64,000 nucleotides of DNA from Barthelona sp. PCE (lineage: Eukaryota): NCBI GenBank assembly GCA_040285745.1, contig JAUFOR010000001.1, forward strand, positions 992,001 to 1,056,000, given 5' to 3'. A program made the position numbers and the translations under genes. The notes under the pieces are model-generated. The model saw only the letters and a program-made list of their open reading frames with translations. It had not been told where the DNA came from and did no database searches. Below, in pieces: positions 35,248 through 57,789 of the stretch (within the stretch, counting starts at the first letter, position 1; every line of letters begins with the position of its first letter).

Positions 35248-38200
35248 CTAATCATCCGCTTCACTACTGAATATCAATGTTTTAGCACTGAAAAACCATC
35301 GTAAACGCTCCAAAACCTCTGCGGGTTCTTCCAGTATTGGATGCTTCTCCTGCTCTGAACCTTTAAATCCGAACATACGACCTCCTCCCTTTAGCAACTT
35401 TCCAATTTTCAACACTGAAAACGATTTCTTTTGCTCTCTATCCAGGAAATAACGAAGGAACTCGTTCCAGCCACCATCAAGCGAGCAAACATCTGCAGAT
35501 CCAAGTATCGAATCTACAACTCCACCTACACTCGATAGAACAGATCCACCCAGCTTTGATATGGTCCTAATAGCGTCCATAGGACTCAGAACAACACTAT
35601 TATCTATCACACCGAAAATACCTGCAACATTTCCAAGAATATTCATATTTCCAATAGTTTTTGCAACTAACACGGGTATCACACCTCGAACTTTTGCAAA
35701 AAAGAACTCAATACCACGGTATAACGAAGAAAAATGATCCTGAACTACAATGTAGTCGATATCAATATTGAAACTCGAAATTGATGCCCTCTTTGAGAGG
35801 CCACCAATCATCGAAAGCGTAAGCGGGTCCAGTTGAAGGAAGAAATCACAGCTCCTACTTATATTAACAACCGGTTCTTCTTTGTCAACCTGCTTTCCTT
35901 TAGTTTCTGCAAAAATGTCAGCCAAAATCTGAGAGATTCGAGAAGCAATGCTACGAAGCACAAATAGGTTCGGCACAACGCGAACATCCGCAGGGTTAAC
36001 GACAGATACAAAAGATGAAAGACATGAGTTGAACTCTGCCTTAATAGAAAACAGGCTGTCAAGTGACGACGGGCTGATGAGCAGCACATTACTACCTACA
36101 ACAAACGGGATAGAGACATCCAAACGAAGTCCACACAGGGTCATATCCTCGTCGAAACCAACAAGCACATTGCACCGCTCAACAAATATGTTAACAGCGT
36201 GACCGAAAATGACACGAAGGAAATGTATGCGGATATCAATGTTTGGAATATCCACACCAACAAATGGCAATGGTTTAGACTCCTGCGTTGCTGCGATCAC
36301 TGTCCATCTAGTAATACTATCATTACAGCTCTTCTCAACATCGATATCCCCAAACGCAATATGTCCACCTACACCGTCCTCAAATGCACTCAAGTCAACA
36401 CTGTGTACTTTTCCGTTAAATGAAACCAACAGTGCTGGTGGACAAAAACACGTTGAAATGAAACGCTGAGAGAGTACATCGTGCGATAAGGCACCCACGT
36501 CAACTTTCATACTAACGTCGATGCTGTTTGCAATTTGAAAAGTGGCGCTGGCTATGAGTAACCAACCGAACTCTCGACGCTCAATAGTAAACAAAATTCT
36601 CATCAAAACAACTTGGTCATTAACAACAAGCTTTCGTGTTTCAATGTAACTTCCCACGTCCCTGTCAACAGAGAATTCTTCAAAGATGCTACTTGTGCTC
36701 TGAATGAACTTGCGTGAGGTGTTCTCAACATACTCTTGCGGAACTGTACACAAAACGATGCTCATCTTTCCAGCTTGAACAGCACCATTATCAGCACAAC
36801 CATTGAATTCCTGATCTGATACAACGGTCTCGACCCCACAGCCTACATGCTGAAACGCTTTGTTGTCAACAAACACAACAAGATCCGTTTCGTTACGTAC
36901 AACAAGATCGTACTCTACAATAACACGCACCTGAGGCGTACTGCCGTCCGTCCAGACCGTTATTCCAGACCACGTGAGCGCTTCTATCTTACCAGTATAC
37001 TCGCGCGGAATAAAGAACTCAAACAGTGCCTCTTCGTGCTCGTTCCGCAAAGCAACTGTGTTTCCCTCTGTTCCTGTAACAAAAACAAACATGTTTGAAA
37101 GTGGGGGCACATCACAACCATAAAACGTAAAAGGGAAGGATGTGTTGTTACAAATCTCAACAGCTGGTGAGATGAGCACAATGTCTGAAAGCGGAACATC
37201 TCTAATGCAAAAGTATGGATATACGTTGACACGCCGTGGTGCTTCCTCGAATATAATCGGGTTAGTTCCATCGAACTGAAAATAGTACTCTTGAAAAGAG
37301 TCGAATGACGCGCTGAGCCACATTGTCTCGCCATGTTTGAGATAGCTCTCTTTTGTTCCGATACGCACATAAACTCCCATAGGCATCCCATTAACAATAC
37401 CGTACCTGCTGCTCAGTACTAGAAGTGTCTCTGTAAAACGTCTGTTGAGACGAAAAACACCCACTGACTGTGAAAACAACTCAACCAAATGTGTGTCCGG
37501 ATTGATTTCATCACCTGACAGCAGTGCTTTCATTGGAACATTGAACAAAACGCGATCATCGCTCGAGAAAACAGAAACATCGTCAACTGACATCAGTCGA
37601 ACCCTATGCCCAGGTAAACACGGTGCTATACCTTCATCCGACATGACGGACAAATCCGTCTCAGTTCGATTGATGAGGAACACAGGGCGATAGTAAATCG
37701 ATGGAACATTAACGACGACCTTGTCAAGAACAACTGAGATGGAAGGTTTGACAGAGGCGCGAACGCCGCAGCTCAAAACTCGGTGGCGTATCATAGATAC
37801 CTGATCGCGCATGTCAACCGTAGCTTCCAAATGTAGCACGTTTGCTCGAAGTTGAAAACTCACTGTAGCATCAAGTAGTACAGTATTATGTACATGTACA
37901 GTGAATTTGATGATATCGTTTTTCCAGCATAAAAGGAAATTGAAGGAACCTTTCTCTACTTCCAATTTTTTTCCAGAATACCCAAAATTTGGACCAGCAA
38001 TGCTGAGAGATCCATCTTGAAGGTTGAATTCAATGTTACATTGGGCGCTAGCAACGGAAAATTCAATTTTGAGACCATTCCAGACCATTTTGGCCAGAGA
38101 AATATGCTGCAAAAACCATGATTGGTCTCTACCAATCAAATCATTGATTACTGAGCTTGGCTTTGATTCTGATGCTCCCATTCTCGCAATAACAGCAGGA

Positions 38201-39771
38201 GCATCGAGGGAAGCAGGGGTATACTCACTGCTGGAGACATGCAATACATTGGTAATCCATTTGCCACAGTACTTTGTTCTCCCTACACAGATGGAAATTT
38301 CCGAAAAGTCCAATGAATACGTGTCCCCAAATGACAGTGCGTGCCATTCATTAGTGATTGGACAGTTAAAATCCAATACGAGATCGTGAACCGACACAAT
38401 ATCAGATTTAAGTTCCTTTACCGACAGGATAAGACCAACATCAAATTCTTTGGGTTTCTTCTCCTGTTGGGTGACACTTTGTGCTATCAGCGGTGAAATA
38501 AACAGATCCAGAAAACCATCAAGCATATCTGTTAAGAAAGACTGCTGAAGCTGCACTACTTGTGCTAAAAACCCAATATTGGGAATACAAACTAACGAAA
38601 CACTCACTGTCTTAATACTGTCCAGGATCAGCTCACATTCTTCAACGTTTAAGAACGAATATGCCTCATTTTCGGTCTCATTCGACTCAGTCAGTTTCAC
38701 TCCACCGACTTTAACACCTCTTCCGTCGTATGAAACGCTCGAGAAGCAAAGAACACATGCATCAAGCTCCAGTACAATCATAGGACATACTACGGTCAAG
38801 CTTGTTGGTAATCTAAATGGCTCATCAAGCTCAACTGTGTGATCAAGAGCGAATGACTGCATGATACTGGAGAATATGGATCTCTTTTTTGCTCGCTTCT
38901 TCTCCTTTGCTCGCTTCTTCTGCTGCTTCAGACGCTTTTTCTCCATACGCCGTATCTGCCTCTGCCGTTTACGCTCCGAGAGCTCGGACTCAGCATCATC
39001 CTCACTTGAGACTGTACTTAGCGTGTCTTCTTCAGTTTGGACTTCCACGACCGGCTCTGGTCTCTTGTATCCATCAACTATGGCTTTCAGTTGGTTAAAT
39101 GAAAGAGAGCAGTTGTCAACAACGACTTCTGCAGTCTGTCTGCTAATAACCGCATCAATGCAAAGATTCTCCACAATCCCCTCAATGTTAAACGCGTTCA
39201 GGCTCAGAGTAACATGCGACATTAACAACAACGGGGACAACCCGCTGAAAAAACTCACGGGAGACGTGAAGGCAGGCTGGTACGACAGTTGTCCAATAGA
39301 CAAGTTAACAAAATCATCAACAATGACTTGTAAATTGCGTATGAGAAGGCTGCTAGACTGAAACAGTACATCCTTAAAAGATACGTTCAGGCTGCCATCA
39401 TTTCCATCGCTATCTGTTTCCGATTCTGTAGTAAATTCTGTATTCTGTTCTTCGGCTTTAACCTTTGTTTCAGACGATATATCAAACGACAGCGATTTAA
39501 CATGAAGATTTACGTGATTAATTTCAATTGTTGAAGGACTGATAAGCGATTCATTCTTAAATGCAAGAGTAAATGAAAAACTGCCGACCTTACACTCAAC
39601 TATTGGCAAATGCAAAATGTTTGACAGGAAATCTGGTCTTAAGTATATATCCTTCAAGTGTATATGTGATTGAGAAAGGCTCAACCTCATCGAAGAAATG
39701 TCAAAATCTTCAATAATGTTATGCAATGCATTGCGAAGAATTTTCTCAACTCTCCTTTGCAAAAACCCCAT
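35248..39771 (-). CDS. VPS13/chorein-family bridge-like lipid transfer protein, shortened (~1507 aa)
   Basis: Chorein_N-like start (KILRNALHNIIEDFDISSMRLSLSQSHIHLKDIYLRPD); repeated N-x-T beta motifs (LINRTE, ICNNTS, VRNETD) resembling VAB repeats; C-terminal ILGNVAGIFG and Gly-rich helices. ATG at 39771. Confidence 0.65.
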   Translation of the reverse strand: MGFLQRRVEKILRNALHNIIEDFDISSMRLSLSQSHIHLKDIYLRPDFLSNILHLPIVECKVGSFSFTLAFKNESLISPSTIEINHVNLHVKSLSFDISSETKVKAEEQNTEFTTESETDSDGNDGSLNVSFKDVLFQSSSLLIRNLQVIVDDFVNLSIGQLSYQPAFTSPVSFFSGLSPLLLMSHVTLSLNAFNIEGIVENLCIDAVISRQTAEVVVDNCSLSFNQLKAIVDGYKRPEPVVEVQTEEDTLSTVSSEDDAESELSERKRQRQIRRMEKKRLKQQKKRAKEKKRAKKRSIFSSIMQSFALDHTVELDEPFRLPTSLTVVCPMIVLELDACVLCFSSVSYDGRGVKVGGVKLTESNETENEAYSFLNVEECELILDSIKTVSVSLVCIPNIGFLAQVVQLQQSFLTDMLDGFLDLFISPLIAQSVTQQEKKPKEFDVGLILSVKELKSDIVSVHDLVLDFNCPITNEWHALSFGDTYSLDFSEISICVGRTKYCGKWITNVLHVSSSEYTPASLDAPAVIARMGASESKPSSVINDLIGRDQSWFLQHISLAKMVWNGLKIEFSVASAQCNIEFNLQDGSLSIAGPNFGYSGKKLEVEKGSFNFLLCWKNDIIKFTVHVHNTVLLDATVSFQLRANVLHLEATVDMRDQVSMIRHRVLSCGVRASVKPSISVVLDKVVVNVPSIYYRPVFLINRTETDLSVMSDEGIAPCLPGHRVRLMSVDDVSVFSSDDRVLFNVPMKALLSGDEINPDTHLVELFSQSVGVFRLNRRFTETLLVLSSRYGIVNGMPMGVYVRIGTKESYLKHGETMWLSASFDSFQEYYFQFDGTNPIIFEEAPRRVNVYPYFCIRDVPLSDIVLISPAVEICNNTSFPFTFYGCDVPPLSNMFVFVTGTEGNTVALRNEHEEALFEFFIPREYTGKIEALTWSGITVWTDGSTPQVRVIVEYDLVVRNETDLVVFVDNKAFQHVGCGVETVVSDQEFNGCADNGAVQAGKMSIVLCTVPQEYVENTSRKFIQSTSSIFEEFSVDRDVGSYIETRKLVVNDQVVLMRILFTIERREFGWLLIASATFQIANSIDVSMKVDVGALSHDVLSQRFISTCFCPPALLVSFNGKVHSVDLSAFEDGVGGHIAFGDIDVEKSCNDSITRWTVIAATQESKPLPFVGVDIPNIDIRIHFLRVIFGHAVNIFVERCNVLVGFDEDMTLCGLRLDVSIPFVVGSNVLLISPSSLDSLFSIKAEFNSCLSSFVSVVNPADVRVVPNLFVLRSIASRISQILADIFAETKGKQVDKEEPVVNISRSCDFFLQLDPLTLSMIGGLSKRASISSFNIDIDYIVVQDHFSSLYRGIEFFFAKVRGVIPVLVAKTIGNMNILGNVAGIFGVIDNSVVLSPMDAIRTISKLGGSVLSSVGGVVDSILGSADVCSLDGGWNEFLRYFLDREQKKSFSVLKIGKLLKGGGRMFGFKGSEQEKHPILEEPAEVLERLRWFFSAKTLIFSSEADD

Positions 39772-40741: not shown

Positions 40742-42286
40742 ATGAGTGAAAACAAAGTCACACAGCTTCATGGCCGTATTATTGAAGCTGTACCATCCTT
40801 GCGAAGCTTTCCTTGTGGACGTTTTTCAAATGCCAATTTTGACGATCAACAGATTATTCTGGGGCTTACAATTGCTGAACTTGGGGACAAACGCCTGTTA
40901 AACCTCACAGAAGCACGGGAACGAGAGATTATTCGAGAGCGGAGACAACAATTAACGTTTGATCAACGTGAACGTAATGCAGCACAGTATGAGCGGGATT
41001 TTTACACAACTGCAGTCGATTTGGCCTCAGGATTATGTCCTGGCACACTTCCCGACGTGGATACATTGGTTTGTAAGAAAAGCGCCTTCTTCAGTCTGAG
41101 CAGTTCGTTGTCCGGTGTAGTTGAGGCAAGAAAGGGGATTTCTACACGAAAGACGATCTCTCCAAGAGTTCAAAGTCCATTACGTCGAAAACCAGAAACT
41201 GCAATTCCTTCATCACCTTCGCCAAAGCCCAAACCCAAACCGCAGACCAACAAAAGAGAGAGACCACGCCGCAAGATTGTGGCCTCTGCTGACGACATTT
41301 TTGGAGCTCCAAGTGGGGTTAGAGAACATGCAAGACGTCAGGAAGAGTTTGTTACAAAAACCTCCAACAGTAATAGTGAAGAGATCGCGGCATTGCAGGC
41401 CAAAGTTCGATCCCTTGAGATGGAAAATATGAAGTTGAGATCAATGCACGAGCAAGTGCAAGAGAATGTGCAGAAGGCGTTTCCATCAAACTCTGGCAGT
41501 GAATTCTTCGACTTCTACATCCGTCGTCTAACGTTTTTGGAGGAACAGCTCGTGCTCACAAGCTCTGTCAACCATCTCCTAACCAAGAACAACGCGAGTC
41601 TGGTGACGACATGCATAGAAAATGAGTTAGACCTGCCAGTGTTGTCACAAGTCCCAGATGAAGAGTCCGTCTTTGAAGATCCACCAGTGCTCAACCCCAC
41701 AGCGTGCGCAACGCTGGCTGATGCTCTTGTTCGCGTTTTGGGTACTTTACCTGTCCTTGAGTCCGTATCGCGACAGACTGTACTTGATGCGCAACAGGCT
41801 CTCTTGAGCGTTCTTCCTTCCCTTGTTAAGATTCTTCCCACGCATACACCGATCACAGACTTGTCTTTCACGGGTATTGATGAGTTCCAGTCGATTGATC
41901 TTGATGGTTTCCTAAGAAAGGACGTCAAACCAGTTCTTAAAAAAGTTAAGGGAGGCTCTGTACGGTCGGAGATCATGGCTTTGATAAAATTCCTCGTATC
42001 CTTGCTTGGCAGAATGGGGGAAGCCTTTGCAATAGTTTCAAATAATACCGTCGAGGATATTCATAGAAGGCCTGCTTCTCGTGAGAAATCATCTGCTTCT
42101 GAAGCAAGAGACTCAAGAAGCGCAGTTCCCCAACCATGTATTATTGCTTTTCGGGATTTTATGGATATTTTCTACACATTTCAGGCGAATCCCGATTCAT
42201 CCGGTTTAAAGCTTTTGCTTGATCATTTGAAAGAAAATTCAAGTGAAATGATGGATCTTGCAGACTATTTGGAGGTCCAAATGTAA
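40742..42286 (+). CDS. Hypothetical coiled-coil protein, 514 aa
   Basis: Long ORF with heptad segments (EIAALQAKVRSLEMENMKLRSMHEQVQE). Confidence 0.75.
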   Translation: MSENKVTQLHGRIIEAVPSLRSFPCGRFSNANFDDQQIILGLTIAELGDKRLLNLTEAREREIIRERRQQLTFDQRERNAAQYERDFYTTAVDLASGLCPGTLPDVDTLVCKKSAFFSLSSSLSGVVEARKGISTRKTISPRVQSPLRRKPETAIPSSPSPKPKPKPQTNKRERPRRKIVASADDIFGAPSGVREHARRQEEFVTKTSNSNSEEIAALQAKVRSLEMENMKLRSMHEQVQENVQKAFPSNSGSEFFDFYIRRLTFLEEQLVLTSSVNHLLTKNNASLVTTCIENELDLPVLSQVPDEESVFEDPPVLNPTACATLADALVRVLGTLPVLESVSRQTVLDAQQALLSVLPSLVKILPTHTPITDLSFTGIDEFQSIDLDGFLRKDVKPVLKKVKGGSVRSEIMALIKFLVSLLGRMGEAFAIVSNNTVEDIHRRPASREKSSASEARDSRSAVPQPCIIAFRDFMDIFYTFQANPDSSGLKLLLDHLKENSSEMMDLADYLEVQM

Positions 42287-43810: not shown

Positions 43811-45883
43811 ATGCCTCGTTTTGCACAGAGAGATTACTTAATCGTTCCTTCTGGTATTGAAAAGCCAATTCGGCTGTCACACAATGAACATACAATGATT
43901 GCTGTTATTGTTGATGATTCTAATCAGAATGGTCCTTGTTTTCTTGAATTACATGAGAAATGCCCGAACCTTTCCACATTAAATCGTGCATTTGATGGTA
44001 GTTTGTACCAAAACGAGTTTAATTCAAGCACTCTTGCAGGAACGATCAAGTTCTTCAGAATGGAACCTAACTTCAGCATTACTGAGCTGAATGTGATAGA
44101 ATATAGTCTTCCTCATATTGCTGGTCCATCTAGTTTTCTTGACTCAAACATTTGCATTTTCAGCCATGACACGATAATATACACGTTTTTTGGAAACCAC
44201 AGTGAGTACATTGCAAATGAAGATAGTGAAGATGATGATGACAGCAATTCGTGCTCATTTGCATATAATTTGTGCACAAAGGAACTCACATTCTTGTGTG
44301 AGGGTATCATCACCGTCAACGATGAAAACTCGTGCGTTGTTGCGCATTTCGATTCTTTTGATGAACATGTGAAGTTCATCTCGCCCGAACTCAACATCAC
44401 CGAGCTCCAATTCAACATACCCAATATTAAGCAAGTTGGTGTCGTTAATCTGGGCATAAGCGCTCTGTACGGGAGGGGAAGGCTGTCTCTGGTCAACCAC
44501 AGGCTCGAGACTGTTAGTCTGGATCACTTGGTATCAGGACTCGGTTATATTTCATTCAACATGATAGTTCTGCTATCTGTGACGGATTGTGAGCTGGTGA
44601 TGCTTCTTATCTGTGATAAAATAACTCAGTACGTGAGATTCAAAGACGGAAAATTGATTCATCGTGAAAACACAGGCTTTGGATTTGACATGCTTTTCTA
44701 CCCACATGCATCAGTTCCAGACCAAGACGGACTCAACGCCATCGCCAAAGGGTTTGAGTATCAACCTATGTTGGCACTTGGAAAGCAGATGGGCAACAGC
44801 GGTATTTTTAAGCTTCGACAGCGCGGTAAATCGATCGTTGAGATTCCTAACGTGCAGAACTTCACGATGTACAACAACCTACTGAGGTATACGAACTCTT
44901 TTTCAGAAGTCATGCTTGACTTTGCTCGTAAATCGATGTTTGTGATTGATCACAATTTTCTTGGGAAACGAGAGCATGAACTGCATATAAAGTATCTCAA
45001 TAACAACAGTTATGCATGGGCTGAGTACAAGATTGAACTGAGAAGCTTCAATAGAGGGCGAATTGTCAGAGAATCTGTTGACATGACGAACATAACCAGA
45101 GATTCGTACATTCAGAAGCACGAAAGCAAATTGGAGTCTATCTTTGCGCCACGAGAGCGAAACAATGGTGGAAACAACCATTTCTGCTGTTACTTCCGAG
45201 GAGAGCGCCTTTTCATCAAGTTTGAAGATGATGGGGAGCATGTTTTGATGCTGGGAACTTCGCCAATTTCTACATTTAAATTTGCTAACTATCGCCCTGT
45301 GACAGATGAACGGAGTTTTGTGTGCTTTTGTCACTTAGTGTCCTTCCAAAGTTTTGTTTTAATGTATGATGAGGAAACCGAGAAGATCTTGACCCTTCAC
45401 TGCGATATGGGGATTCTCAACTGTTATTCTTCTCCTTATAACAACAGATGTCTTGTTGTTGAAAGTAGGAAGAAATCTTTGTATTTAAGCATTGAGAATG
45501 GTGCAATTGTGCGTGAGGAGTTTGAAGCTTTTAAGAAACTCCATGGATGGCTCTCTGCTGACCTCTTTTTAACTGACTCATACATATATGACGTATCAAG
45601 TGGGATTCCTTCACAAATTGTATACATTCCTGATGTAAGGTTAGGCGAGCACTTTGACGCAGTGTACGTTTCGCCTATGGCTTTTCACATCATTCAATCC
45701 CCTGTTTCTCCAAAGGAAGGTTTCATTATCAAGCATGTCACCATCTCTGAAATTGGCCGTGGCTGCTTCAATTACGAATCTGAAATAGAAATTCTTTCAT
45801 TTCAACAAATTTTTGAAGATTTTGAGGTTTCTGTACATGAGATATTCTCAGATTTTGCCGACAAAAAATCTAAACTTTATTAA
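43811..45883 (+). CDS. Hypothetical beta-rich protein of the divergent ~650-aa family
   Basis: 690-aa ORF; C-terminal SSPYNNRCLVV...WLSADLFLTDSYIYDV pattern shared with the 30346 and 52419 genes. Confidence 0.75.
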   Translation: MPRFAQRDYLIVPSGIEKPIRLSHNEHTMIAVIVDDSNQNGPCFLELHEKCPNLSTLNRAFDGSLYQNEFNSSTLAGTIKFFRMEPNFSITELNVIEYSLPHIAGPSSFLDSNICIFSHDTIIYTFFGNHSEYIANEDSEDDDDSNSCSFAYNLCTKELTFLCEGIITVNDENSCVVAHFDSFDEHVKFISPELNITELQFNIPNIKQVGVVNLGISALYGRGRLSLVNHRLETVSLDHLVSGLGYISFNMIVLLSVTDCELVMLLICDKITQYVRFKDGKLIHRENTGFGFDMLFYPHASVPDQDGLNAIAKGFEYQPMLALGKQMGNSGIFKLRQRGKSIVEIPNVQNFTMYNNLLRYTNSFSEVMLDFARKSMFVIDHNFLGKREHELHIKYLNNNSYAWAEYKIELRSFNRGRIVRESVDMTNITRDSYIQKHESKLESIFAPRERNNGGNNHFCCYFRGERLFIKFEDDGEHVLMLGTSPISTFKFANYRPVTDERSFVCFCHLVSFQSFVLMYDEETEKILTLHCDMGILNCYSSPYNNRCLVVESRKKSLYLSIENGAIVREEFEAFKKLHGWLSADLFLTDSYIYDVSSGIPSQIVYIPDVRLGEHFDAVYVSPMAFHIIQSPVSPKEGFIIKHVTISEIGRGCFNYESEIEILSFQQIFEDFEVSVHEIFSDFADKKSKLY

Positions 45884-46258
45884 ATCTTCTTTTTTTATGC
45901 TTTTAGAATGTTTATTAGTATGAACTATGGTAAATAACGCCAACACCAACAAAATTGAGTAAAAGAATCAAAACAAAAAAATATACTATATCTGTTTCAC
46001 TAAAAAAAGACAGCCTATTTGACATATGTGTTGTTCATGTTATGATTGCGATGTTATGTGTAATCAACTAAAATAAATCTTCTCCTTTCATGTTTCTAAT
46101 ATATGCTTGCAAATATGCTTCACATTTCTACAATCTTTTCAACAAAACTAAATATCATATTTATGCCAGAAGGACTATCACACATTCATGACTCGTAATA
46201 TATAAAAGAGAATGCATACCATTGAGATACATGCACTTAGAAAAAATGGTTCACAACG

Positions 46259-46397
46259 GTATTGAATTTCATCGCGTTGCCCCTGGCTGCCTGTTGATGT
46301 CTACTGAGAGTAAAGCAGATGAGAAAGAGGTGGAAAACGTAGATTTACGTTTCCTTTCACAAGTGTGACTTCACAGGGGCTGAGTTCTCTCGGATAC
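46259..46397 (+). ncRNA. Candidate structured ncRNA (GC-richer island just outside the left TIR)
   Basis: GCCCCTG/CAGGGGC stem enclosing a CTGC/GCAG arm and the hairpin GGAAAACGTA-GATT-TACGTTTCC; outer pairings GTATT/GATAC and GAATT/AGTTC; no ORF. Confidence 0.3.
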
Positions 46398-46684
46398 ATG
46401 CATGTTTACTGACAGATATCTAGTTGGATGGCGTGAATAAGTTCCTAAGCTCGAGGTCGGGTAATTGAGTTCCCACCCCATAAAAAATAGTAAAAAAGAG
46501 AAATCCGGAATGTACGATAAAGGACGTAATTCGGACAGCACATTCATGAGTCACAGATTCACTCTGCCATGAGTTCCGTCAACCACATGCTTCCATCATT
46601 CAACAAACATCATTCAACAGTTACTCCAGTCAAAAAATGATCATTTTTTTTTATATTAATCCTTTTTCTTTAGGGTTTGCCAAA

Positions 46685-46732
46685 TATAGATTATAGATTT
46701 ACTAATGTCGTAACATTGAATGATAGGGAACG
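46685..46732 (+). repeat. Left terminal inverted repeat
   Basis: TATAGATTATAGATTTACTAATGTCGTAACATTGAATGATAGGGAACG; subterminal ATATAGGTTTTG occurs twice at 46744-46768. Confidence 0.85.
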
Positions 46733-46948
46733 CTAATGTAAACATATAGGTTTTGAATATAGGTTTTGGATACAGATTAATCAGATTTGATTGCTTTATT
46801 CTTGGAGTTGCAGCAGTTGAAAAAAAGGTGTCTAAACATCATAAACATATATTTATTGTTGTGTTATCGTTATATATGGTAACACAGGTGTTCCTGGAAC
46901 GACACGAGCCATAAATAAACCATAATAATTATCGTCTCCAATTCGTTG

Positions 46949-49900
46949 TTAATTACTACTAATATTATTCTTCAATCTACTGAAAGCACTTTCAACAGCG
47001 TTGTTAGAGGGTGAGTAGAATTTGAAAGGAGTAAGGAAATTTTTAAAGCTCGATTGAAGATAACTTGGCAGTGCAGTGTAACCCCTAACTAAGGCTATAC
47101 GGATCATTTCCGAATTGACAAACTTAGAGGAACCTTCTTCTCCATCAAAAAACTTTCGAACACTATCATTATTTAAATAATCCAGAGCATCGTCAACCGT
47201 TCTTGCAGATTGCGGTTCTGAAGATGTCCTCTGTAATTGGCGCGGTAGTTCCATTACGTTAGCAGAGCTCGCTGCAGCAATTCTAGCTTTTCGCCGTTGT
47301 GATTCGGGAGATTTATAATACTCGGATGCATTGTCATATTGTTGACGATTATTCGGCTCCAAATCTAGTTGTAGTGGTTCTTCTGGCGGCATAATGGGAT
47401 CATTAGGTGAGTAAGCAAAGTGTTTGGAATCTTGTAGCACACATGCAATATAACCAACCAAACCTCTCACCTTTTCACCCCTGTTTTCGGCATAATAGAC
47501 ATAACTCAAAGCATACTGAGACCAATTTGTGAAGTGGGAGGTATCAAAACAACCTGTTGTTGTGTTGGGTTTCTGTTTATCAGGGTTCAATCGTGATCGA
47601 AGGAAATGGTAACACATAGTTACTTTGAGTCCGTTAAGAGTTTCTGTTGTCAAATCTTTATCAACATATTTGATGCTCAACTGGGAGAGATAATTAGCTG
47701 TAGCTGTATCACCAAAATCAAAACCACTTAACTTAACTGAATCTAAATCACACATCAAAAAAGCTACTAATGCTTGAGCTTGAATGAATTTCTCACTCAA
47801 ATATCGAACAACATACATCTCCAAAGCATTTGTGTAACGTAAAACAAAACTATTGTTGGCGAACCTCTCCTTCAAAAACGTTAAAACTACAAGCATTTGT
47901 GAAATCTCACAGTAAACATTCAACACGCTGTATCGAGCAGAGCAAGCAATACGCTGGATCAAAATAAATCTCTCCATAATTATCCTGTATATCTTACTAC
48001 ATTCCCAAAGATCCTCTCCTAGTTTGAACTCTTCTTTCAATTCATCGGGCCGAAAACACATAGTGAATACACGGAAGAAGTCTTCAGTTGCTTGCCAACG
48101 TACATTATCTAACTTATTATCATCATTTTCTAAAAATATCTTCCACAACTCAACATTGATCAACGATTGAACATATGCGAAGAACTTGAGTTCCACGTGT
48201 TCCTTCTGTATGATTGATGCCATGGTAATAATGGGAATATTGCAATGTATGTATGAGAATTTTTTGTATCTATCATACATCTCCTTCAGTCTATCTGAAT
48301 CTTCAATTTCAACACCTGCCTCGTTTCTGATCTTGTCATTAACCCTCAGACCCATATATTTCCTATCTTGTCCGAGCTCTTTGAGTACTTGAAGCTTGCG
48401 ATTCTCATACCCCATTAAAAAATCTTCACAAATCATAGGGTTGCTCTTCAACTCTGCATCTGAAGGCTCAATGACTTCACAATCAACCTTATTGTTCCAA
48501 CGATTGATAGGGTTTTTCTCGATGCTAATTCCTGCATTACGGAATGTCTTCAAAAGACAAATAGATTTAACTTTTTTTGAAGTAGTTTGAATCAATACTG
48601 GGAACACTTGCACCACCATTGAAATAGTTTAAGATCAACCGGAATTCAGCTAAAAGACTTTTTTGTCCGTTGGTAATCATTTCTCCTAACTCCTTCCAAT
48701 TCATAACGTTTAATAAATTGGACCAGCATCTTTCTGCATCCTCTAATACGAGGTTAAACGTCATCGACTTGGTGATCAAGTTGTGCGATATGTGTGCAAA
48801 AGCATGGAGAGTGCATAAACTGTTCATGATGGCGGGATAGCATTTCACACAACATAATTTCAGGATTACCACCATCAGTTCCAATGATGATCCTCACATT
48901 TTCTTCAATATATGATGATGCAAATGTTAATTCAATCTCTCTTTTAGCATCCAATTTGTACGTTACTTTCTCTGGAAATGTGGATATGGTATTTTCTACC
49001 ATTATTGGAGATTTTCCATGAAATAAGAAAGTAGGTAATGAATAAGTCTTCAAAATTCCTCTGTCAACTAAGAAATCAAGCAGCCAAATACCCAGATCAT
49101 ACGCTGTTTTTCCCGTAACTGAGGTTCGGTGAAAAGGAGGCTCACCATAACTTCTAACGCCATTAATCTTTTGGCATAGGACAACAAGGTTCTTATTTTT
49201 AAGCCAGTCAAGATATCTAATGACATCTATTGTCATAGTGTTGCTTATAAAAACTTCAGTTTTTTCATTAAAAAATTTCATGCTCTGGTGGAGGTACATT
49301 ATGTTCACCAAAATTTGGCACATCAAGCATGATGATGATAGACTCACGACCATCTAATCTTGAAGCATCATACTGCAAACATATTGGCAAGTCTTTTTCA
49401 ATAAAAATCTTTAACAACCATTCAGTGATAAATGCATGAAAATTAGTTATAATACGGAGGTATTTAAAGAATGCTCCTTCCACCCCCCGCTTGGTGGTGA
49501 ACTCATCCTTAATACTTTCTTTCGCGTTCCTAAGACTATTTGCTAATACTAGCTTAGAGAAGTATCTGGAAACATGTTTTGAATTGTCATTAATCACATT
49601 TTCATTGTTAATTCTAACAGACATCGCTACTATATTCCTATTTTCGCATGTAGAAATATTTGAAAGAAAGGGATTATAAAGAATATTCGGGATTTCGCAT
49701 TCAAACAACCTTTTGGCTACACTGTACTTCAAACTATACACCTTTAACCAAAACTTTGCACAAAAAAAACTTGAACTCTTGTGATACGATAAGGGTGGAT
49801 TGTAAATCGCATCTTTAACCCTTTTTGTGATGTTCTTACCTTCATATTTAATTATTCTGCCGTTATTTGCGCAATCTATCAAAGTTTGGTAATCCTTTTT

Positions 49901-50368
49901 TAGCTTTTCAGAATAAGGGTAATTTGGGTTTTTGACTATAGATGCACACAGCATTCTTAAACGATTTAGAAAAGGTAGCATGTTATATACAGCTTGCCCC
50001 GTTAATGGATCTATCAGCTTAAACAGCCAATTTTTGAGTGATATTGCATTTTTTTTGTATCTACCTACATCAGCACCATCCCTCAAAATGTTGTTAAAAA
50101 ATGAGTCTTTGTTGGCAATAGGGATCAGCCTGCAAGAGAAATCTTTATACGAACAGGGCAAATGTATTAAATTGTGAATATCAACCCTTTTCTTGAACTC
50201 TATACCTTGACTGTTATAAATCGCTTCCACAACAAGATCGTTAGTGCCTGGATCAGGTGCAGGGTTTTCATCGTTATATAGCGTAGGTTTTTGAATTTCA
50301 TATTCTTCTTCAACCATTAAGAAGTTATCCTCTCTTGATATGAGCAGTTCTGAGAGAGGGTATGCCAT
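46949..50368 (-). pseudogene. hAT-type DDE transposase, ~1138 aa once three +1 frameshifts are corrected (pseudogene or assembly error)
   Basis: Four consecutive overlapping minus-strand ORFs together give CLQYDASR (D1), IIIGTDGG (D2), HSPCF-AH (CxxH, restored across a shift), RWNN and SNNAVESAFSRLK (E and dimerisation region). Confidence 0.8.
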
Positions 50369-50666
50369 CTGTCAACTTTGTTTTTATACTCGTTGTTAGA
50401 TAGGGGTGATTAAAGTAATTCCAGTTTTTTTAGAAATCTGGACTGAAATCTATAAAATCAAATAAATTGAATGTTGGACATAGGTGTTTACTAATACATA
50501 TGGTCTCTTGCGCACAACTAGATTTCCACTAATTACGATATAGGTCCAATCATGGAAGTTCGAATGCCTACTTTTTCTTCCCCTTTTCAGCAATGCACAC
50601 ATGGATCATCGATTAAATGATGATGCAAAGTGGTTAATTGGCAAAAAGTTATTTTGTGACAAAAAG

Positions 50667-50739
50667 TACTCAGAGGGAGACTCGAACTCCCGACCGTTCG
50701 CTTATTAGACGAATGCTCTACCGACTGAGCTATCCAAGC
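50667..50739 (-). tRNA. tRNA-Ile (anticodon AAT)
   Basis: GCTTGGA-TA-GCTC-AGTCGGTA-GAGC-A-TTCGT-CTAATAA-GCGAA-CGGTC-GGGAG-TTCGAGT-CTCCC-TCTGAGT-A forms a full 73-nt cloverleaf with A and B boxes, followed by CTTTTT (Pol III terminator). Confidence 0.9.
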
Positions 50740-50945
50740 AATGCTCCATTTTTCAGTGAAGACGGAAATGTTTCAACAAAAAGTGTCAAGTTACATTCTG
50801 GTTATTCACAATTTAAGGCAACCCATTTCTCATCCATCTCACGTAATTAGGGGTTAAGTATACCGAAAACAGTGGTGTAATCAATTGGTAGAGACCCACA
50901 ATCAGTTAAAAATTATTAATTAGCTTTTTTTATTATTAAAATTTT

Positions 50946-51168
50946 TTTGTAGGAGATTAAATTTATTTCGGATTAGACACTTGTACGGGAGTTACGAGCT
51001 CCCTCGAGTGCTGTGCTTACACTGAGAATTGTTCTAGAGCCCTTTTTTTAAAATAAAAGGGGATAAAGAAATGATGTAAGTACTCACAGAGTACAAGAGG
51101 GAAGATTGCGTGCCTATTCCTCCTGTAGATTTACTCCTACGAAATAGCGTGTTATTCACAAGCGTGCC
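50946..51168 (+). ncRNA. Structured repeat copy A (candidate pseudoknotted RNA)
   Basis: Shares three blocks with copy B (18/19, 27/30 and 42/44 nt); long stem 50946-50966 / 51125-51143; extra hairpins lie between the blocks. Confidence 0.5.
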
Positions 51169-52062
51169 ATATGTCACAATTGTCTCAAAATTATACTTTA
51201 CACAGTCTATTCATATACATTTATAATATTTATAGATGTATATATAGCACTGGGTGATTTATATATTTATTTATTTAGACAGGATGAATGATCTACCTCC
51301 CATTTTTAGATCTCCATAAATCGTTACTTTGCCAAAAGCGAAAAAAAAAGTTTAATTATACATCATTTTCTTTTTATTTTTGGTGTAACTGTTCTTCAGA
51401 TATCTTCAGATACATGGACGTAAATCTTTACATTCCATATGAATTTCTATTATTGAGTTTAATTTCCTTTTCTCTTTTCTCCTTCATTTTGGATGGTTGT
51501 TTATTGTTTATTGTTTATAGTTTATTGTGTGAGTATAAAGATATTGTATTATTTGTTTTCAGTTCAATGAACATCTTTTAGGAAAGTCAGAAGATTCTTT
51601 TGTATGACTATGCATGTGTATATACCAACATTTTCCATTGGGCAAAGTAAATATTAAGAAAAGTAATGAAATTGAAAATTTATTGATAAAATGAAGCTTT
51701 GATCTAATCACTTTCTTCTTTACATTTCGCCTGAAGGTCATGTGTTGACCCACTTAAATGAAATATATTTGATAAGAAATGTGTCAATGTAAAAATGTTC
51801 GATGAATAATTTTATAAAATGAGATGACATTCCATCAAAATCATTTGTTTAAGTGAATAGGAATAGTGTTGGGTGAACATTATTCTTTGAAAGTAAGTTG
51901 TTGAAGATTGGTAAAAATCATTGAAGAAGAATTGTAAATAAGCGATCTATATGTAGATGTAAAGAAAGATTTGATTGTGCTTAACCAAGCTCTCACGAAA
52001 TCATTGATTACGTAAGAAATGGAGAAAATATTACCCCTAAGACTAAAAGTAAACACTCGAAG

Positions 52063-52225
52063 TTCGTAGGTAGTAAATTTACTTCGGAGTAAGGCACTTG
52101 TTCTGAGAATTGTTCTAAAGCTTAAAAGAAAAGAGAAAGAAATGAAGTGAGTACTCGCAGAGTACTTACTTCTCAGGTAGATTTACTTCTACGAAATAGC
52201 GTGTTATTCACAAACGTGCCTTTTT
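52063..52225 (+). ncRNA. Structured repeat copy B (candidate pseudoknotted RNA, ends in T5)
   Basis: Stem 52063-52082 / 52177-52195; 13-bp hairpin 52144-52172; AAGGCAC-TTGT (52091-52101) pairs with ACAA..GTGCCTT (52210-52222); ends in TTTTT. Confidence 0.55.
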
Positions 52226-52358
52226 GAATATTAATGAAGTATAAAACGATTGCATTTGTTTTAAAAATGATCCAATTTGAAGCTCCACTATTCTAAAGTG
52301 CAACTCCAAGAATAAACAATCATCTGGTAGAAAATTTTTTTTAAAATCAAAATTATTA

Positions 52359-52406
52359 CGTTCACTATCATTCAATGTTACAACATTAGTAAATCTATAA
52401 TCTATA
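52359..52406 (-). repeat. Right terminal inverted repeat
   Basis: Reverse complement of 46685-46732 with 2 mismatches. Confidence 0.85.
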
Positions 52407-52418
52407 ATGGTTCTTTGA

Positions 52419-54326
52419 TCACATTATATTGTAAAATATTTCAATTTCTGTGCAATCTGGACTAACTATTGATTGTAAAGGTAATGCTTCAAAAGTTTCA
52501 TCTATTGTGTTATAGTTTTTATCAAAAATCATATGCGACACTTCAATGGCAGAGTTCTTCACAGTTGAGCTCATTCTAACGATATGGAAAGGATCAACAG
52601 AAAATATTCGAGATATTGACTCAAAAAAGAAGTTTTCTCTAATTTTGGCACTATGAACGGCCCATAGTTCCTCATTCAAAAAGTTAAACACAGTTTCACC
52701 ATAGATAAACGATGTTTCACTGATAAAACAAGAAAAGAATGATCGGTGATCCGTCAAACCATGAGCATCAGTGTATTTTTCTATAACACTACGTTCTGTA
52801 TCATAAATGAGAATTATGAGATCATCATAGTTGTGTAATACGGCCATATGCGGATTATGTGGGTTAATAAAGACTTCAGATTTGTCAGTGATGAGATCCA
52901 CATAAATAAACTCTTTGCGCTCATCAATATCGCAAACTCCGACCCTATATCCAGCCTGAACCCACAAAAGAGAGCCATATAGTCGTAACAATGTCGGTTC
53001 AGATCCAAATGTGTGTATTTTCTCATCATCCACAAAAAGTTCATTGATGAAAGTCCATGCAACGATAGAACTATTAAAGGCGAACAAAGTTGAGGCAGAT
53101 AACGCTTGTGAACAGCTACAAACATGTAACACTACTCTATTCTGATTATAAACATAAAGACTTTTGTTTTCGTTCTGCACGAGAAAGAGGATGTTCTTCG
53201 CCTTTCTGTCGGGCTCTGCTGCCAGAAGTCTGTTGGGTGAGACGGCAGAAATATGAAGCGTGGAGTACCGTTTGAGAAAATCGCATATTAGAAAACAAGA
53301 AGGCAATTTTTGAACTACACTTCCATCTGCCATGTAATTAAGATACATACCATCAGAGATGTTACAAACAAACGAATTACAGGTCTCAAAGCGGAATTCA
53401 AAAATATCATTCTTAGTAATACTCTTTGTGAAATAAAATTGCTCTCTCTCACAATAAACCTTTTCCATAGCAATACTAGCACATTTTCCCACGAGATTTA
53501 GCTCTGAATCGACACATACAGTGTTGCTAAAACGGTTAAGATAGATTATCCCGTTGTGTGTGTATGCAACTTTGGGCATATAGTCGATTGGTAGTTTCTG
53601 CAGCATTTCTTCACTATAACATCCTGTAGCGCGGTCATATTCGACTTTGATTGTGGCATTTGTAAGGGCGTAATATCCAATAGGATTGGTTGAGTTGATG
53701 ATGGCAAAGTGTAGGTATCCGTCTTGTAGTAGCTCGCAGTCATGCTCCGTGAATGTCAGCTTCTCACTGTCTATATCAAAACGCATGTATGCCAGCACAT
53801 GTTTGAATGGTTTTCCGGGAATTGTTTTCGTGAGTGCAACTGGTATAACTTCGTTTACCATGAAAATCTGAGTTTCGCATCGATATAAACAATCAATAAC
53901 TTCAATTCTATCATTTTTAATATCCAAAAGACTAAAGGTCGAGGTACTCAGATCTTGAAACAAAACATGATGAAAACCCATTGGTAGATAACCCCTTGTC
54001 GGACATTTGGTGTTTTCATACTCACAAACTGCTGTGAATTTTGAGTTTTGAACAGTGTAATAGGTCACAATGTGACCATTACAAGAAATGTAAAGGTGTT
54101 GGTTGCAAAAAAGACATTTATAAACAGGAAACTCCGAAGAATGCACAACATCACCAGGGACGATTGTGGTTGTTGATATGGGAAGATTGTTATCCCTATA
54201 TTCAATAAAAAAATTCCCATTCCCAATGTCAGTAGTAAGATTATTACTTGACATATTATATTGGAAAAAAGAGCCAAAACAGTTGAAAATTAAAGAAGTA
54301 GGTTGAAGTAATAGTTGCAAATCCAT
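52419..54326 (-). CDS. Hypothetical beta-rich protein of the divergent ~650-aa family
   Basis: 635-aa ORF (alternative ATG at 54254); FINPHNPHMAVL...FISETSFIYGETVFNF pattern shared with the paralogs. Confidence 0.75.
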   Translation of the reverse strand: MDLQLLLQPTSLIFNCFGSFFQYNMSSNNLTTDIGNGNFFIEYRDNNLPISTTTIVPGDVVHSSEFPVYKCLFCNQHLYISCNGHIVTYYTVQNSKFTAVCEYENTKCPTRGYLPMGFHHVLFQDLSTSTFSLLDIKNDRIEVIDCLYRCETQIFMVNEVIPVALTKTIPGKPFKHVLAYMRFDIDSEKLTFTEHDCELLQDGYLHFAIINSTNPIGYYALTNATIKVEYDRATGCYSEEMLQKLPIDYMPKVAYTHNGIIYLNRFSNTVCVDSELNLVGKCASIAMEKVYCEREQFYFTKSITKNDIFEFRFETCNSFVCNISDGMYLNYMADGSVVQKLPSCFLICDFLKRYSTLHISAVSPNRLLAAEPDRKAKNILFLVQNENKSLYVYNQNRVVLHVCSCSQALSASTLFAFNSSIVAWTFINELFVDDEKIHTFGSEPTLLRLYGSLLWVQAGYRVGVCDIDERKEFIYVDLITDKSEVFINPHNPHMAVLHNYDDLIILIYDTERSVIEKYTDAHGLTDHRSFFSCFISETSFIYGETVFNFLNEELWAVHSAKIRENFFFESISRIFSVDPFHIVRMSSTVKNSAIEVSHMIFDKNYNTIDETFEALPLQSIVSPDCTEIEIFYNIM

Positions 54327-54430: not shown

Positions 54431-55654
54431 TTATTCAAAATTTTTTAAATCAATGCGTTGTGATTTCAAAGGAGTAGATGAGTAAGGCCAAGCCTTTCTC
54501 TTCCGCAATGTGATGTGCATTTCGGCGTCACATGTGAAATATCTGGTTGTTTTACCGTCTCGAATTTTTTTTTTGCGTTTTGGTGTGATTTTAATCTGCA
54601 AAGGATTTTGTTTCATTTTGGGCTTGGGGCTTGGGTGCCAAGTTTCTGTAATTCTGAAAGGTATTCTTCTCTCTCCTTTCTCTACAGCAAATTTTTTGTA
54701 GCTGTGGTAAAGTTTTAAGTTAAATATTCCGGCATGAGATGATTTTTTTGCATAGTTTTCTGTGCTTCTAACAACATTTTCCCACAATCTAGCCTCTTTA
54801 TCACTGGTTGCTATGTTACGCGCAAGCGTTTTGATGGTTCTCAAATCTCTGTAGATTTCTGCATCATTTTGATCACCCTCAAAAGTGATTTTCACAGTGT
54901 GTTCTGCCTTGGACTGAACCATTCTACTTAGATATTTGGGGTATTGGCTCTGTTTCTTTTGCATCTCAGCTTCCCACATGGTGAGGGGAAACTCAATTGC
55001 GAAAAGTAGTTCGAGAATGCGAAGTATTTTGTCTTCTGGGAGTTTAGTATGGAATTGAATTAAATTGACACTGAAATTGCATTGCGCCACCGCATGAAGT
55101 ATAAGATTAATGTCATTTGGCGATACACAAACGAGTGGTTTTTTCTGTAGCTTTGATGATTTTTTTTTTGTATGTGGATTTCGTTTTCCAATTAGTTGTT
55201 TTTGCCTTTCAGGAGGAAATTTCTTGACACAGACGGTACAGATCGGATCATGAAGAGATTTTTTGTGAAGAAATACTGTTGTGGAAAGAGCATTTTTGCA
55301 TAGACAGCATTTCATTATATTCGGCTTATTTCTTGGTTTTAACTTAGTTTTGGGCTTATGCTTGGCTTTTGACTTCTGTTTGTACTTCTGTGGAGCTGAT
55401 ACAACTTCTACTGGATTTTGTTTTTCTTTTTTCTTTAAGACCAAATGGGTACCGTTGCACAATACAGAGAATAATTCCTCTATTTCAACAACGTTTAAGT
55501 GGCGAGATATGTTTTTAATAAGGTATTCTGCTTTTTCCAAGGTTATTTTTAACTTCTTAGCTATTGATGCCTTTTTTGATTGAAGCTGTTGCAAACCAAG
55601 ACCTCTATGTGCCATGACAACCGCAATAAATTTTTTTTTGTTAATTTCATACAT
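54431..55654 (-). CDS. Lys-rich protein with a Cys cluster and a possible degenerate ZZ + SANT module (SWI3/ADA2-like)
   Basis: CCLCKN...ICTVC followed by NDINLILHAVAQCNFSVNLIQFH...LLFAIEFP; the similarity is weak. Alternative ATG at 55615. Confidence 0.5.
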   Translation of the reverse strand: MYEINKKKFIAVVMAHRGLGLQQLQSKKASIAKKLKITLEKAEYLIKNISRHLNVVEIEELFSVLCNGTHLVLKKKEKQNPVEVVSAPQKYKQKSKAKHKPKTKLKPRNKPNIMKCCLCKNALSTTVFLHKKSLHDPICTVCVKKFPPERQKQLIGKRNPHTKKKSSKLQKKPLVCVSPNDINLILHAVAQCNFSVNLIQFHTKLPEDKILRILELLFAIEFPLTMWEAEMQKKQSQYPKYLSRMVQSKAEHTVKITFEGDQNDAEIYRDLRTIKTLARNIATSDKEARLWENVVRSTENYAKKSSHAGIFNLKLYHSYKKFAVEKGERRIPFRITETWHPSPKPKMKQNPLQIKITPKRKKKIRDGKTTRYFTCDAEMHITLRKRKAWPYSSTPLKSQRIDLKNFE

Positions 55655-55815: not shown

Positions 55816-57789
55816 ATGCAGGTTTTTAATCGGAAATTGTTTATAGATGTGTGTGAACAGATAAGTACTTGCAAGCTAGTTGAGACTCAGCATTCATTAT
55901 TCACAACAATGACTGATGCATTCAAAGATACAAATTTCATGTTAGACGAGGGTATAATTGAAGCAATAGAAAACGCAGCAAATAGTGTAGTCGATCCAGA
56001 TGTTCTTGCAGAGTTTTTAAAAACATTTCTTCTCATTTTTGAAAGTTCTGTGGAGGAAAAGCAGGATATAGTTCCAACATTCGAGTTTGATACATATCCA
56101 TCCCATGAATTCGTGTTTGAGAAGTATAGGAATGCAAGGATTCCAGATAATGTTTTGATTGAGTTTGGTTTATGTAATGTTGCTCCGTTCCCTACTTCAT
56201 TGAACATGTCACAGTCTCTATGGACAGGTATAGCTATTCGTGCTTTCAACACAAGGCATGTTTTTTGTTGCTGTTATGCTCTGAAACTGTTGCTCTTCAC
56301 TGGTGTTGATTATTCAATTTTAGAAGAAAATGTGCTTTTTATGAACCGTCTCCTGGAGTTCTTTGAAAACGGCATGGCAGATTTTCTCGTGCCCTTCATT
56401 CTCGATTTTTTTCTTGTTTTGTTCAAGAGCAATGTCAAGAAGGACATTTTCATTAATATTTTTGTGTTTAATAAGGGTTTTGATGCGTTATTAAGATGTT
56501 ATAAGAGCGATAATCGACTTATGGGATCTAACTTTGTTCTCCAAAATTTCGAAATTCTTCACATCGTTATTACCCACAAAAATATGAGAGATATCTTCAT
56601 AATGAGTGACTTTTTCAGTGTTCTAGTGGAAGATGCGTCAATATTTCAGAAATTACAGTGCCGAATGAACGAGGATGAAGTGATAAAGATAACTCAAAAT
56701 CTAACGTTATATTTGAGATGCTTGAATGAAGTATACAACACAGAAGAAGTATTTTGCAGTTTACTTCGGATATGCAGTACGTGCACTCGATGTTTCTCTG
56801 AAGTGAAGTTTTACGAACTATACGCCGAAATGGTCAAGTATATTTCGTGTTTCAGTTCAACTTATCTCCAGGTTAAGATTGATTCAGAGGTTTTTTTAGG
56901 ATGTTTCTCTGTCATATTACATTTCCAAGTATTTCTTTTACGGTCACATATAGGAAGTTATGATAGTTTTATTTGTAATTTGTTGAAGATGATGAAATTG
57001 GCATTCGATATAGCAGACAGCGACACACAGTTACAATTAATTAATCTAATACTGCAATCTTTGGTTTATTGGGCACAGGATAACAAGAGGAGTGCAATGC
57101 TGGATTCCAGACATGAGGACCTGGTCTTCTTGTTTGTTGAATTGCTGTTGCACTGCGATTTTCAGACATTCATGACAGACAGAATGAGTGAAGCGCTCCT
57201 TCACTGTATATGTGTATGCGTGGCTTTGAACAATTTCCACATTCTTATCGGTTGTTTATTGCTGGGTATTGAAATTGCACGAAAGTTGCCGAATGCCTTG
57301 AAGCAGAAGTTTGCGTTTTTTTTCTCGCCTTCCTTCACCGTTTCCCGTATGGCGAAGCCTTTATTTGTCTTTCTGAAACGGGAAATGCTTGAATGTTATG
57401 TTGTCACGAATGAAGAAACGAAAGATTGCGAAGTTTTCTTTGTTGAATTTATCAATACAGAATTCTTCCACCCTCTCATCAAGGATCGATTCACTTTATT
57501 GTACAACAAACACTTTGGCAAGGAGAGTTGGCTTGAAGACGTAAACAATAGATCGATCGTTGATGTGCTTGATGAGTTCAAGGTTATGAGCAGATCGTTT
57601 AAGTTCATCACAGAGCAGAACAGCAGGCTAAGCATGGACTATGACCAGCTTAACAGGACATACAATACACTGAGTACAGATCACACTGATCTTTTGGATC
57701 TAATGGCAGATTTGTACTACGAGAATGAGGAGTTGAAACAGAGCCAGTTCGCTAGAGTTATGGATGTAGAAGATTCATTCATTAATTAA
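55816..57789 (+). CDS. Uso1/p115-like vesicle tether (ARM head, short coiled coil, C-terminal motif)
   Basis: NIFVFNKGFDALLRCYKSDNRLMGSNFVLQNFEIL resembles the p115 head segment (IVAFENAFERLLDII...GGIVVEDCL); HTDLLDLMADL resembles the p115 C-terminal QDDLLVLLAD. Confidence 0.6.
   Translation: MQVFNRKLFIDVCEQISTCKLVETQHSLFTTMTDAFKDTNFMLDEGIIEAIENAANSVVDPDVLAEFLKTFLLIFESSVEEKQDIVPTFEFDTYPSHEFVFEKYRNARIPDNVLIEFGLCNVAPFPTSLNMSQSLWTGIAIRAFNTRHVFCCCYALKLLLFTGVDYSILEENVLFMNRLLEFFENGMADFLVPFILDFFLVLFKSNVKKDIFINIFVFNKGFDALLRCYKSDNRLMGSNFVLQNFEILHIVITHKNMRDIFIMSDFFSVLVEDASIFQKLQCRMNEDEVIKITQNLTLYLRCLNEVYNTEEVFCSLLRICSTCTRCFSEVKFYELYAEMVKYISCFSSTYLQVKIDSEVFLGCFSVILHFQVFLLRSHIGSYDSFICNLLKMMKLAFDIADSDTQLQLINLILQSLVYWAQDNKRSAMLDSRHEDLVFLFVELLLHCDFQTFMTDRMSEALLHCICVCVALNNFHILIGCLLLGIEIARKLPNALKQKFAFFFSPSFTVSRMAKPLFVFLKREMLECYVVTNEETKDCEVFFVEFINTEFFHPLIKDRFTLLYNKHFGKESWLEDVNNRSIVDVLDEFKVMSRSFKFITEQNSRLSMDYDQLNRTYNTLSTDHTDLLDLMADLYYENEELKQSQFARVMDVEDSFIN

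Follow-up and report, generated by a model that had tools for sequence, protein, structure and literature searches.

Does the mobile unit of a DNA transposon in the free-living, anaerobic metamonad flagellate Barthelona sp. PCE (Eukaryota) include a complete tRNA gene, or do two transposon ends merely flank host DNA in which that gene resides? The question is raised by positions 46685 to 52406 of a 64,000-nucleotide (nt) stretch of contig JAUFOR010000001.1 (positions 992,001 to 1,056,000, forward strand), referred to here as the window. Between its inverted ends, this 5.7-kb unit contains a transposase gene, a tRNA-Ile(AAT) gene, and a palindromic repeat in two copies. A reading made from the letters alone (the sequence-only reading) had proposed a candidate new system, in which a hAT-type transposon carries a tRNA gene and a duplicated structured RNA. 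The unit is a real transposon copy, if a somewhat unusual one, and belongs to a new hAT-like family; its cargo may be mobile along with it. The new system itself was unsupported: neither covariation nor an Rfam match was found for the supposed RNA, no target-site duplication (TSD) was found at the ends of the unit, and the transposase frame is broken. The account favored here, tentatively and with slightly less than even confidence, is a single passenger-carrying copy of a new, very divergent hAT-like family.

Ends, transposase gene, and family of the element

Terminal inverted repeats (TIRs) of 48 nt each, complementary at 46 of 48 positions (96%; repeat search of the window), enclose the unit, just as the sequence-only reading had described. 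Relative to the transposase gene, the left TIR (46685 to 46732) marks the 3' end of the element and the right TIR (52359 to 52406) its 5' end; neither is assigned a strand. The outer 24-mer of the TIRs was found at two sites in the 64 kb, both of them element ends, and two or more matches were found in 0 of 100 shuffles. Approximately 100 nt inward of the ends, an 18-nt subterminal motif pair (46795 to 46812 and 52299 to 52316, unstranded) forms a perfect inverted repeat (100%; blastn-short E value, ~1.7e-4). A 9-mer, TAGATTTAC, was present in both TIRs, in the arms of both palindromic repeat copies (51126 and 52178), and at 46340, with no other site in the 64 kb; the 9-mer may be bound by the transposase or may recur by chance. 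The site at 46340 falls 345 nt beyond the left end of the element.

The hAT-like transposase gene occupies 46853 to 50368 on the minus strand, with an ATG at 50368 and homology to paralogues that reaches 46856. A transposase of ~1138 amino acids (aa) had been reported here; the gene is present, but its open frame is interrupted. The reading frame is divided into four pieces (49268 to 50371, 48754 to 49353, 48567 to 48893, and 46949 to 48628), and a frame walk with the paralogue P0002 placed three +1 shifts, one extra base each, on the minus strand at ~49272 (P0002 aa 366; T6 run), ~48800 (aa 523; T4 run), and ~48575 (aa 597; A7 run). A stop codon, TAA (46949 to 46951, minus strand), is located where the paralogues read Q (Gln) and results from a substitution rather than from a homopolymer error. 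In tblastn comparisons, P0002 aa 1 to 366 were 100% identical to the window copy and the paralogue P0008 was identical at 373 of 374 positions (99.7%). The intact paralogue P0005 was 93 to 96% identical in two long segments and 77 to 82% identical in two short ones at the shifts, and P0001, a 40% identical paralogue, matched the window gene with an E value of 3e-118.

Three homopolymer indels accompanied by hardly any substitutions are more suggestive of errors in long-read assembly than of decay. This pattern raises the possibility that the unit is an assembly artifact, in which two genomic copies were joined through the repeated element, the flanks derive from different loci, and the shifts are homopolymer errors. 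Every shift is a single extra base in a T6, T4, or A7 run of a gene otherwise near-identical to P0002 and P0008, and the genome was assembled from Nanopore reads at 66x coverage and polished with Illumina reads (from an excerpt of PMC11316075), a procedure that may be unreliable in multi-copy repeats. Nanopore reads at that coverage would, however, usually span a 5.7-kb repeat, the TAA stop is of a different nature from the shifts, and a misjoin of flanks would not produce a tRNA gene and repeats between the ends. An artifact is considered improbable.

Near-identical transposase proteins were encoded on a 688,707-bp contig (P0002 and P0008) and on a 2,128,580-bp contig (P0009), with the pieces of the window copy on a 1,334,541-bp contig and the intact P0005 (1162 aa) on a 766,953-bp contig. 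Two further subfamilies were represented by P0001 (1110 aa, 39 to 40% identical) and P0004 (1227 aa, 23 to 26%), such that the three subfamilies span 1110 to 1227 aa and 23 to 40% identity. With the 1110-aa paralogue as the query, 1.84 billion representative proteins yielded four relatives, all of one family, and every named relative of the transposase was called Barthelona sp. PCE. A profile search with the three-subfamily alignment matched P0001 and P0002 only, both of the same family. Metagenome scans produced 108 pattern matches, none of which was confirmed as a relative, and no match to the TIR 24-mer. As judged from these sequences, the element appears to be multi-copy, recently active, and old in its lineage. 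A transposase with three subfamilies and no Pfam family is of interest to transposon specialists whatever the cargo.

The near-identical copies have lesions of their own. P0002 and P0008 are split gene models (789 and 374 aa), and P0009 is shortened (995 aa, with two internal gaps); these lesions sit elsewhere than those of the window copy. Either each young copy was independently broken, or homopolymer errors are frequent in the repeat.

Residues invariant in the three-subfamily alignment (23 to 39% identity) included D333 (in LQYDAS), D497 (in GTD), C520-x-x-H523, R754-W755, and E1117 (in V-E-x-x-F-S). The C-terminal V-E-x-x-F-S motif, in which E and FS are invariant in the three subfamilies, is one that we take to be hAT-like. 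The spacing from the second D to CxxH is 23 aa (D497 to C520); in Hermes and Kat1, the DDE residues are split by an insertion domain that contains a Trp, and CxxH is located ~25 aa past the second D, although CxxH is also present in other transposase superfamilies (from an excerpt of PMC4763223). Among neighbors retrieved with the Atlas protein language model, 9 of the 10 best named clusters for P0004 shared hAT-type families (scores of 0.82 to 0.87), and those for P0005 were mostly hAT families (0.86 to 0.89); the tool rates scores below 0.9 as "lead only." The sole Pfam match in the family was DUF659 in P0004, below threshold (E value, 0.11). PF05699 (hAT dimerization) had no match at E values up to 10 in P0001, P0004, P0005, the window pieces, or two C-terminal stretches. 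No Pfam match was found to the N-terminal BED zinc finger (PF02892), the N-terminal 300 aa being poorly conserved across subfamilies, and a PDB sequence search returned a chance match alone (E value, 0.13). Formal hAT membership was evaluated by PF05699, the BED finger, short TIRs, and an 8-bp TSD, and none of these was found. The earlier label of "hAT-type" is thus plausible by motif positions and language-model neighbors but is without support from family libraries, and on the strength of the former the transposase quite probably has an affinity with the hAT superfamily.

A tRNA gene and two palindromic repeats between the ends

A tRNA-Ile gene with the anticodon AAT was predicted at 50666 to 50739 on the minus strand by ARAGORN and by Rfam (RF00005; 64.2 bits, where the gathering score is 29; E value, 1.2e-11). 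The gene is co-oriented with the transposase gene, whose ATG (50368) lies 297 nt downstream of it; this bears out the sequence-only reading of a complete, co-oriented tRNA gene ~300 bp upstream. The predicted fold is a standard cloverleaf in which 3 of the 7 acceptor stem pairs are G-U, and TTTTT (50661 to 50665), directly 3' of the tRNA on its own strand, is an RNA polymerase III (pol III) terminator. By these features, the tRNA-Ile(AAT) gene is complete and probably functional. A non-exhaustive phrase search of the literature turned up no eukaryotic TIR transposon described as carrying a complete tRNA gene.

Two diverged copies of a folded element had also been described on the strand opposite the transposase. 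Both copies were recovered on the plus strand, at 50948 to 51168 (copy 1, 221 nt) and 52065 to 52220 (copy 2, 156 nt), as direct repeats ~1.1 kb apart. In a pairwise alignment, 146 aligned columns matched and 15 did not (91% identity), and there were four indels, at which copy 1 has an extra 33, 7, 3, and 22 columns. A fold is present in each copy and is formed by inverted-repeat arms within the copy (TTCGTAGG.AGTAAAT.TAC and its complement). Fold z-scores were -2.19 (plus strand) and -2.31 (minus strand) for copy 1 and -4.41 (plus strand, equaled by 0 of 200 shuffles) and -2.08 (minus strand) for copy 2.

The proposal that the tRNA and a repeat-derived RNA aid expression, insulation, or targeting, or act with the transposase, draws on the position and orientation of the complete tRNA gene, on the greater folding of both repeat copies compared to shuffles (z-scores from -2.1 to -4.4), and on the recurrence of the TIR 9-mer TAGATTTAC in both copies. 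The details of the fold argue otherwise. Both strands fold, as those of DNA palindromes would, and the four indels of 3 to 33 columns separate the copies. No compensatory pairs were found among 44 pairs of the plus-strand consensus fold or 32 pairs of the minus-strand fold, although two sequences do not make this a real test. Rfam returned no match to the repeats at gathering score, and even at E values up to 10 nothing better than 4.6. The T5 terminator, moreover, lies between the tRNA and the transposase gene. The repeats look like foldback or miniature inverted-repeat transposable element (MITE)-like DNA palindromes, and nothing marks them as an RNA gene; the fold that had been reported is real, whereas its RNA nature was not borne out. 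A functional RNA cargo system is regarded as very improbable. A MAFFT consensus fold in which 7 of 41 pairs were changed on both sides was rejected: four of these came from misalignment of the 5' arm of copy 2 with a copy 1 insertion, and none remained after better alignment.

One of the copy 1 insertions contains a 24-nt tRNA-like fragment (50986 to 51009, plus strand, in tRNA sense) corresponding to a T arm and 3' acceptor strand. Its Smith-Waterman score against tRNA positions 48 to 72 was 31, compared to a maximum of 26 in 200 tRNA shuffles, and it lies 250 nt from the intact tRNA-Ile gene in reverse orientation. Relaxed ARAGORN made no tRNA call on the fragment. This similarity hints that the fragment may reflect local templated repair or rearrangement. 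Another copy 1 insertion (~51095 to 51116) contains AGAGGGA, which pairs with the tRNA-like fragment.

Long terminal repeat (LTR) features were also sought in the repeats. Only copy 1 has TG...CA termini, no primer-binding site follows copy 1, and the outer TTTTT flanks are of low complexity. No reverse transcriptase or gag-like open reading frame (ORF) was present, and a 97-aa ORF in the 2-kb region (51288 to 51581) had no relative at E values up to 10. An origin as a yeast Rover/Roamer element, with solo LTRs beside a tRNA gene, had been considered and was ruled out by the axonemal-type dynein encoded in the window and by the Barthelona sp. PCE relatives of the transposase. None of eight ORF translations of the cargo region (two of them alternative starts of one ORF) was found in the protein collection; this is uninformative. 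The collection also lacks the ORF of the right neighbor and contains that of the left.

The sequence CATATGGTCT at 50497 to 50506, between the tRNA and transposase genes, matches 9 of the 10 bases of the telomere unit TATATGGTCT; it is a single unit and probably a chance occurrence. The telomere unit of Barthelona sp. PCE, TATATGGTCT, is described as unusual (from an excerpt of PMC11316075).

One mobile unit or two separate ends

Under the passenger account, a transposase of ~1160 aa would bind the 48-nt ends and the subterminal motifs and would excise and reinsert the intervening DNA. The 2-kb 5' stretch with the tRNA-Ile(AAT) gene and the two palindromic repeats would be passenger DNA, which may have entered the 5' region by capture or nested insertion, such as templated repair after a break, and which would ride passively rather than serve as an RNA partner of the transposase. 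Any TSD would have been lost through later ectopic recombination between copies. The single pair of ends counts for one element, as does the absence of an inner relic: a second, inner element end was not found between 50369 and 52258, where the best local alignments scored 20 to 28, compared to a shuffle median of 24 to 25 and a 95% level of 29 to 31. A relic inner TIR near 50446 to 50500, raised by clustered 8- to 10-mers, was rejected on the same basis, its local alignments being no better than those of shuffles.

Several observations weigh against this account. An 8-bp TSD was not found (left flank, ttgccaaa; right flank, atggttct), and in this, the only copy examined, the flanks shared no direct repeat at any length up to 10 in any register. 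The family is young (copies ~99 to 100% identical), so a simple 5.7-kb insertion should still show its TSD, and the missing TSD in so young a family fits better with two independent ends. As assembled, the three shifts and the stop preclude a full-length transposase from this copy. Two kilobases of non-coding 5' sequence is atypical of a hAT element. The assignment to the hAT family is itself weak: every Atlas score was below 0.9, only 2 of the 10 best named matches of P0005 shared a clan with the top named match, no family member had a Pfam match at gathering score, and the AlphaFold2 model from the three-sequence alignment was unusable (predicted local distance difference test [pLDDT], 32.1; predicted template modeling score [pTM], 0.29).

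Because the TSD is absent, the 5.7-kb unit at its present site is not a simple insertion; either the two ends came from different events, or two copies recombined, or the assembly joined two loci. The last of these corresponds to the artifact described above, whose mismatched flanks would also account for the absence. Recombination between copies has a precedent among yeast hAT elements, in which 9 of 46 copies with two TIRs were without a TSD, a result that the authors attributed to old age or inter-copy recombination (from an excerpt of PMC4316626).

The TSD absence observed here is exactly what would result if the two ends arose in separate events. The locus would then be composite or fractured: an element would have lost its 5' end, a separate 5' fragment (at least 52221 to 52406) would lie 2 kb off, and the tRNA gene and repeats would be resident. 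The second end could derive from another insertion or from aberrant transposition, and the resident host DNA could, for instance, be a nest of mobile DNA near a tRNA gene, in a compact genome. hAT elements are prone to local hopping and to fractured-end rearrangements, as with maize Ac/fAc, which counts for such an origin. The left flank (45884 to 46684) is 801 nt of non-coding DNA with no ORF longer than 58 aa and no Rfam match, following a neighbor ORF at 43811 to 45883, whereas gaps between ORFs of at least 200 aa in the window have a median of ~105 nt (n = 21, hand-computed); this difference suggests a gene-poor pocket that accumulates mobile DNA. The reversed tRNA-like fragment near the tRNA gene likewise points to local rearrangement. 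Against a composite origin, it requires two nearby insertions in matching orientation and the traceless loss of both inner parts, with no inner relic found, and the near-identity of the transposase body to P0002 and P0008 (100% and 99.7%) means that the truncation would be very recent. The sequence-only reading had itself named two ends flanking host DNA as its alternative; the TSD absence that this predicts was seen, but the relic of an inner end was not. We consider a composite locus a serious possibility, at roughly a one-in-three level of belief.

That a recently active hAT-like family took a complete, functional tRNA-Ile(AAT) gene and palindromic repeats into its mobile unit, and has been copying a pol III gene genome-wide, is doubtful on the present sequences. 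If it were true, the tRNA could add tRNA dosage or serve as a chromatin boundary or safe-harbor signal. If several copies carry the tRNA, the family would be a clear eukaryotic example of a complete pol III gene being spread by a cut-and-paste transposon, with bearing on the evolution of tRNA gene copy number in compact genomes and on the co-location of mobile DNA and tRNA genes. If two ends merely flank a host tRNA gene, the locus would be an ordinary rearranged transposon site.

Genomic setting and comparison with known systems

The window is very gene-dense, apparently intron-poor eukaryotic DNA. Its ORFs encode a 4102-aa dynein heavy chain (axonemal-type), an isoleucyl-tRNA synthetase, a kinase, an NAD kinase, and a CNOT1 homologue. 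Ten ORFs of 346 to 1507 aa had no Pfam family (E value of 1e-5 or 0.01) and are lineage-specific or very divergent proteins: 13432 to 16518, 16527 to 17567, 27080 to 30349, 30346 to 32349, 35248 to 39771, 40742 to 42286, 43811 to 45883, 52419 to 54326, 54431 to 55654, and 55816 to 57789. The right neighbor of the element is among them (52419 to 54326, minus strand), and 12 nt separate its stop codon from the edge of the right TIR. The ORFs at 27080 to 30349 (plus strand) and 30346 to 32349 (minus strand) converge with a 4-nt overlap at their stop codons, and several other ORF neighbors are only 9 to 35 nt apart.

Among known systems, the unit most resembles hAT elements (Ac, hobo, Hermes, yeast Rover/Roamer, and the domesticated Kat1) in having a single large transposase between inverted ends with subterminal motifs. 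The Atlas neighbors of the Barthelona transposases are mostly hAT families, and D, D, CxxH, and RW, followed by a C-terminal E-x-x-FS, are arranged in the hAT order (from an excerpt of PMC4763223). Yeast Rover is similarly multi-copy, with broken and intact copies together, but has PF05699 and PF02892 (from an excerpt of PMC4316626), whereas the Barthelona family matches neither. The family also differs in transposase length (1110 to 1227 aa, compared to ~800 to 860 aa for hAT transposases), in the 8-bp TSD, which was not seen at this locus, and in the 2-kb 5' region with a tRNA gene. hAT TIRs are 5 to 27 bp, and the 28-nt TIRs of Roamer were the longest reported for a hAT by 2014 (from an excerpt of PMC4316626); as those of a hAT element, ends of 48 nt would be unusually long.

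Dada elements are likewise DDE transposons physically tied to tRNA genes. The Dada transposase is distantly related to those of hAT, P, MuDR, and Kolobok and targets genes for tRNA and small nuclear RNA (snRNA) (from an excerpt of PMC3706591). According to the same excerpt, Dada elements have no TIRs, split the RNA gene, produce a 6- to 7-bp TSD, and contain DxxH; here, in contrast, the tRNA gene is intact and located 1.6 kb inside long TIRs, and the transposase contains CxxH. The unit is not a Dada element.

Pack-type elements and macrotransposons also place host DNA between transposon ends, where it is potentially mobilized, but their cargo consists of protein-coding fragments or genes. Maize Ac/Ds macrotransposons are examples of host DNA between transposon ends. 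A hAT element that amplified a housekeeping gene has been described as well (from an excerpt of PMC6710886).

In a gene-dense genome, repeats and a transposon lying no more than 2 kb from a pol III gene recall tRNA-proximal nests. These nests are formed by retroelements that insert beside tRNA genes in compact genomes, such as yeast Ty1/Ty3 and Dictyostelium TRE/DGLT-A. In the Barthelona unit, by contrast, the tRNA gene is enclosed by the ends of a DNA transposon, and the accompanying repeats are without clear LTR features.

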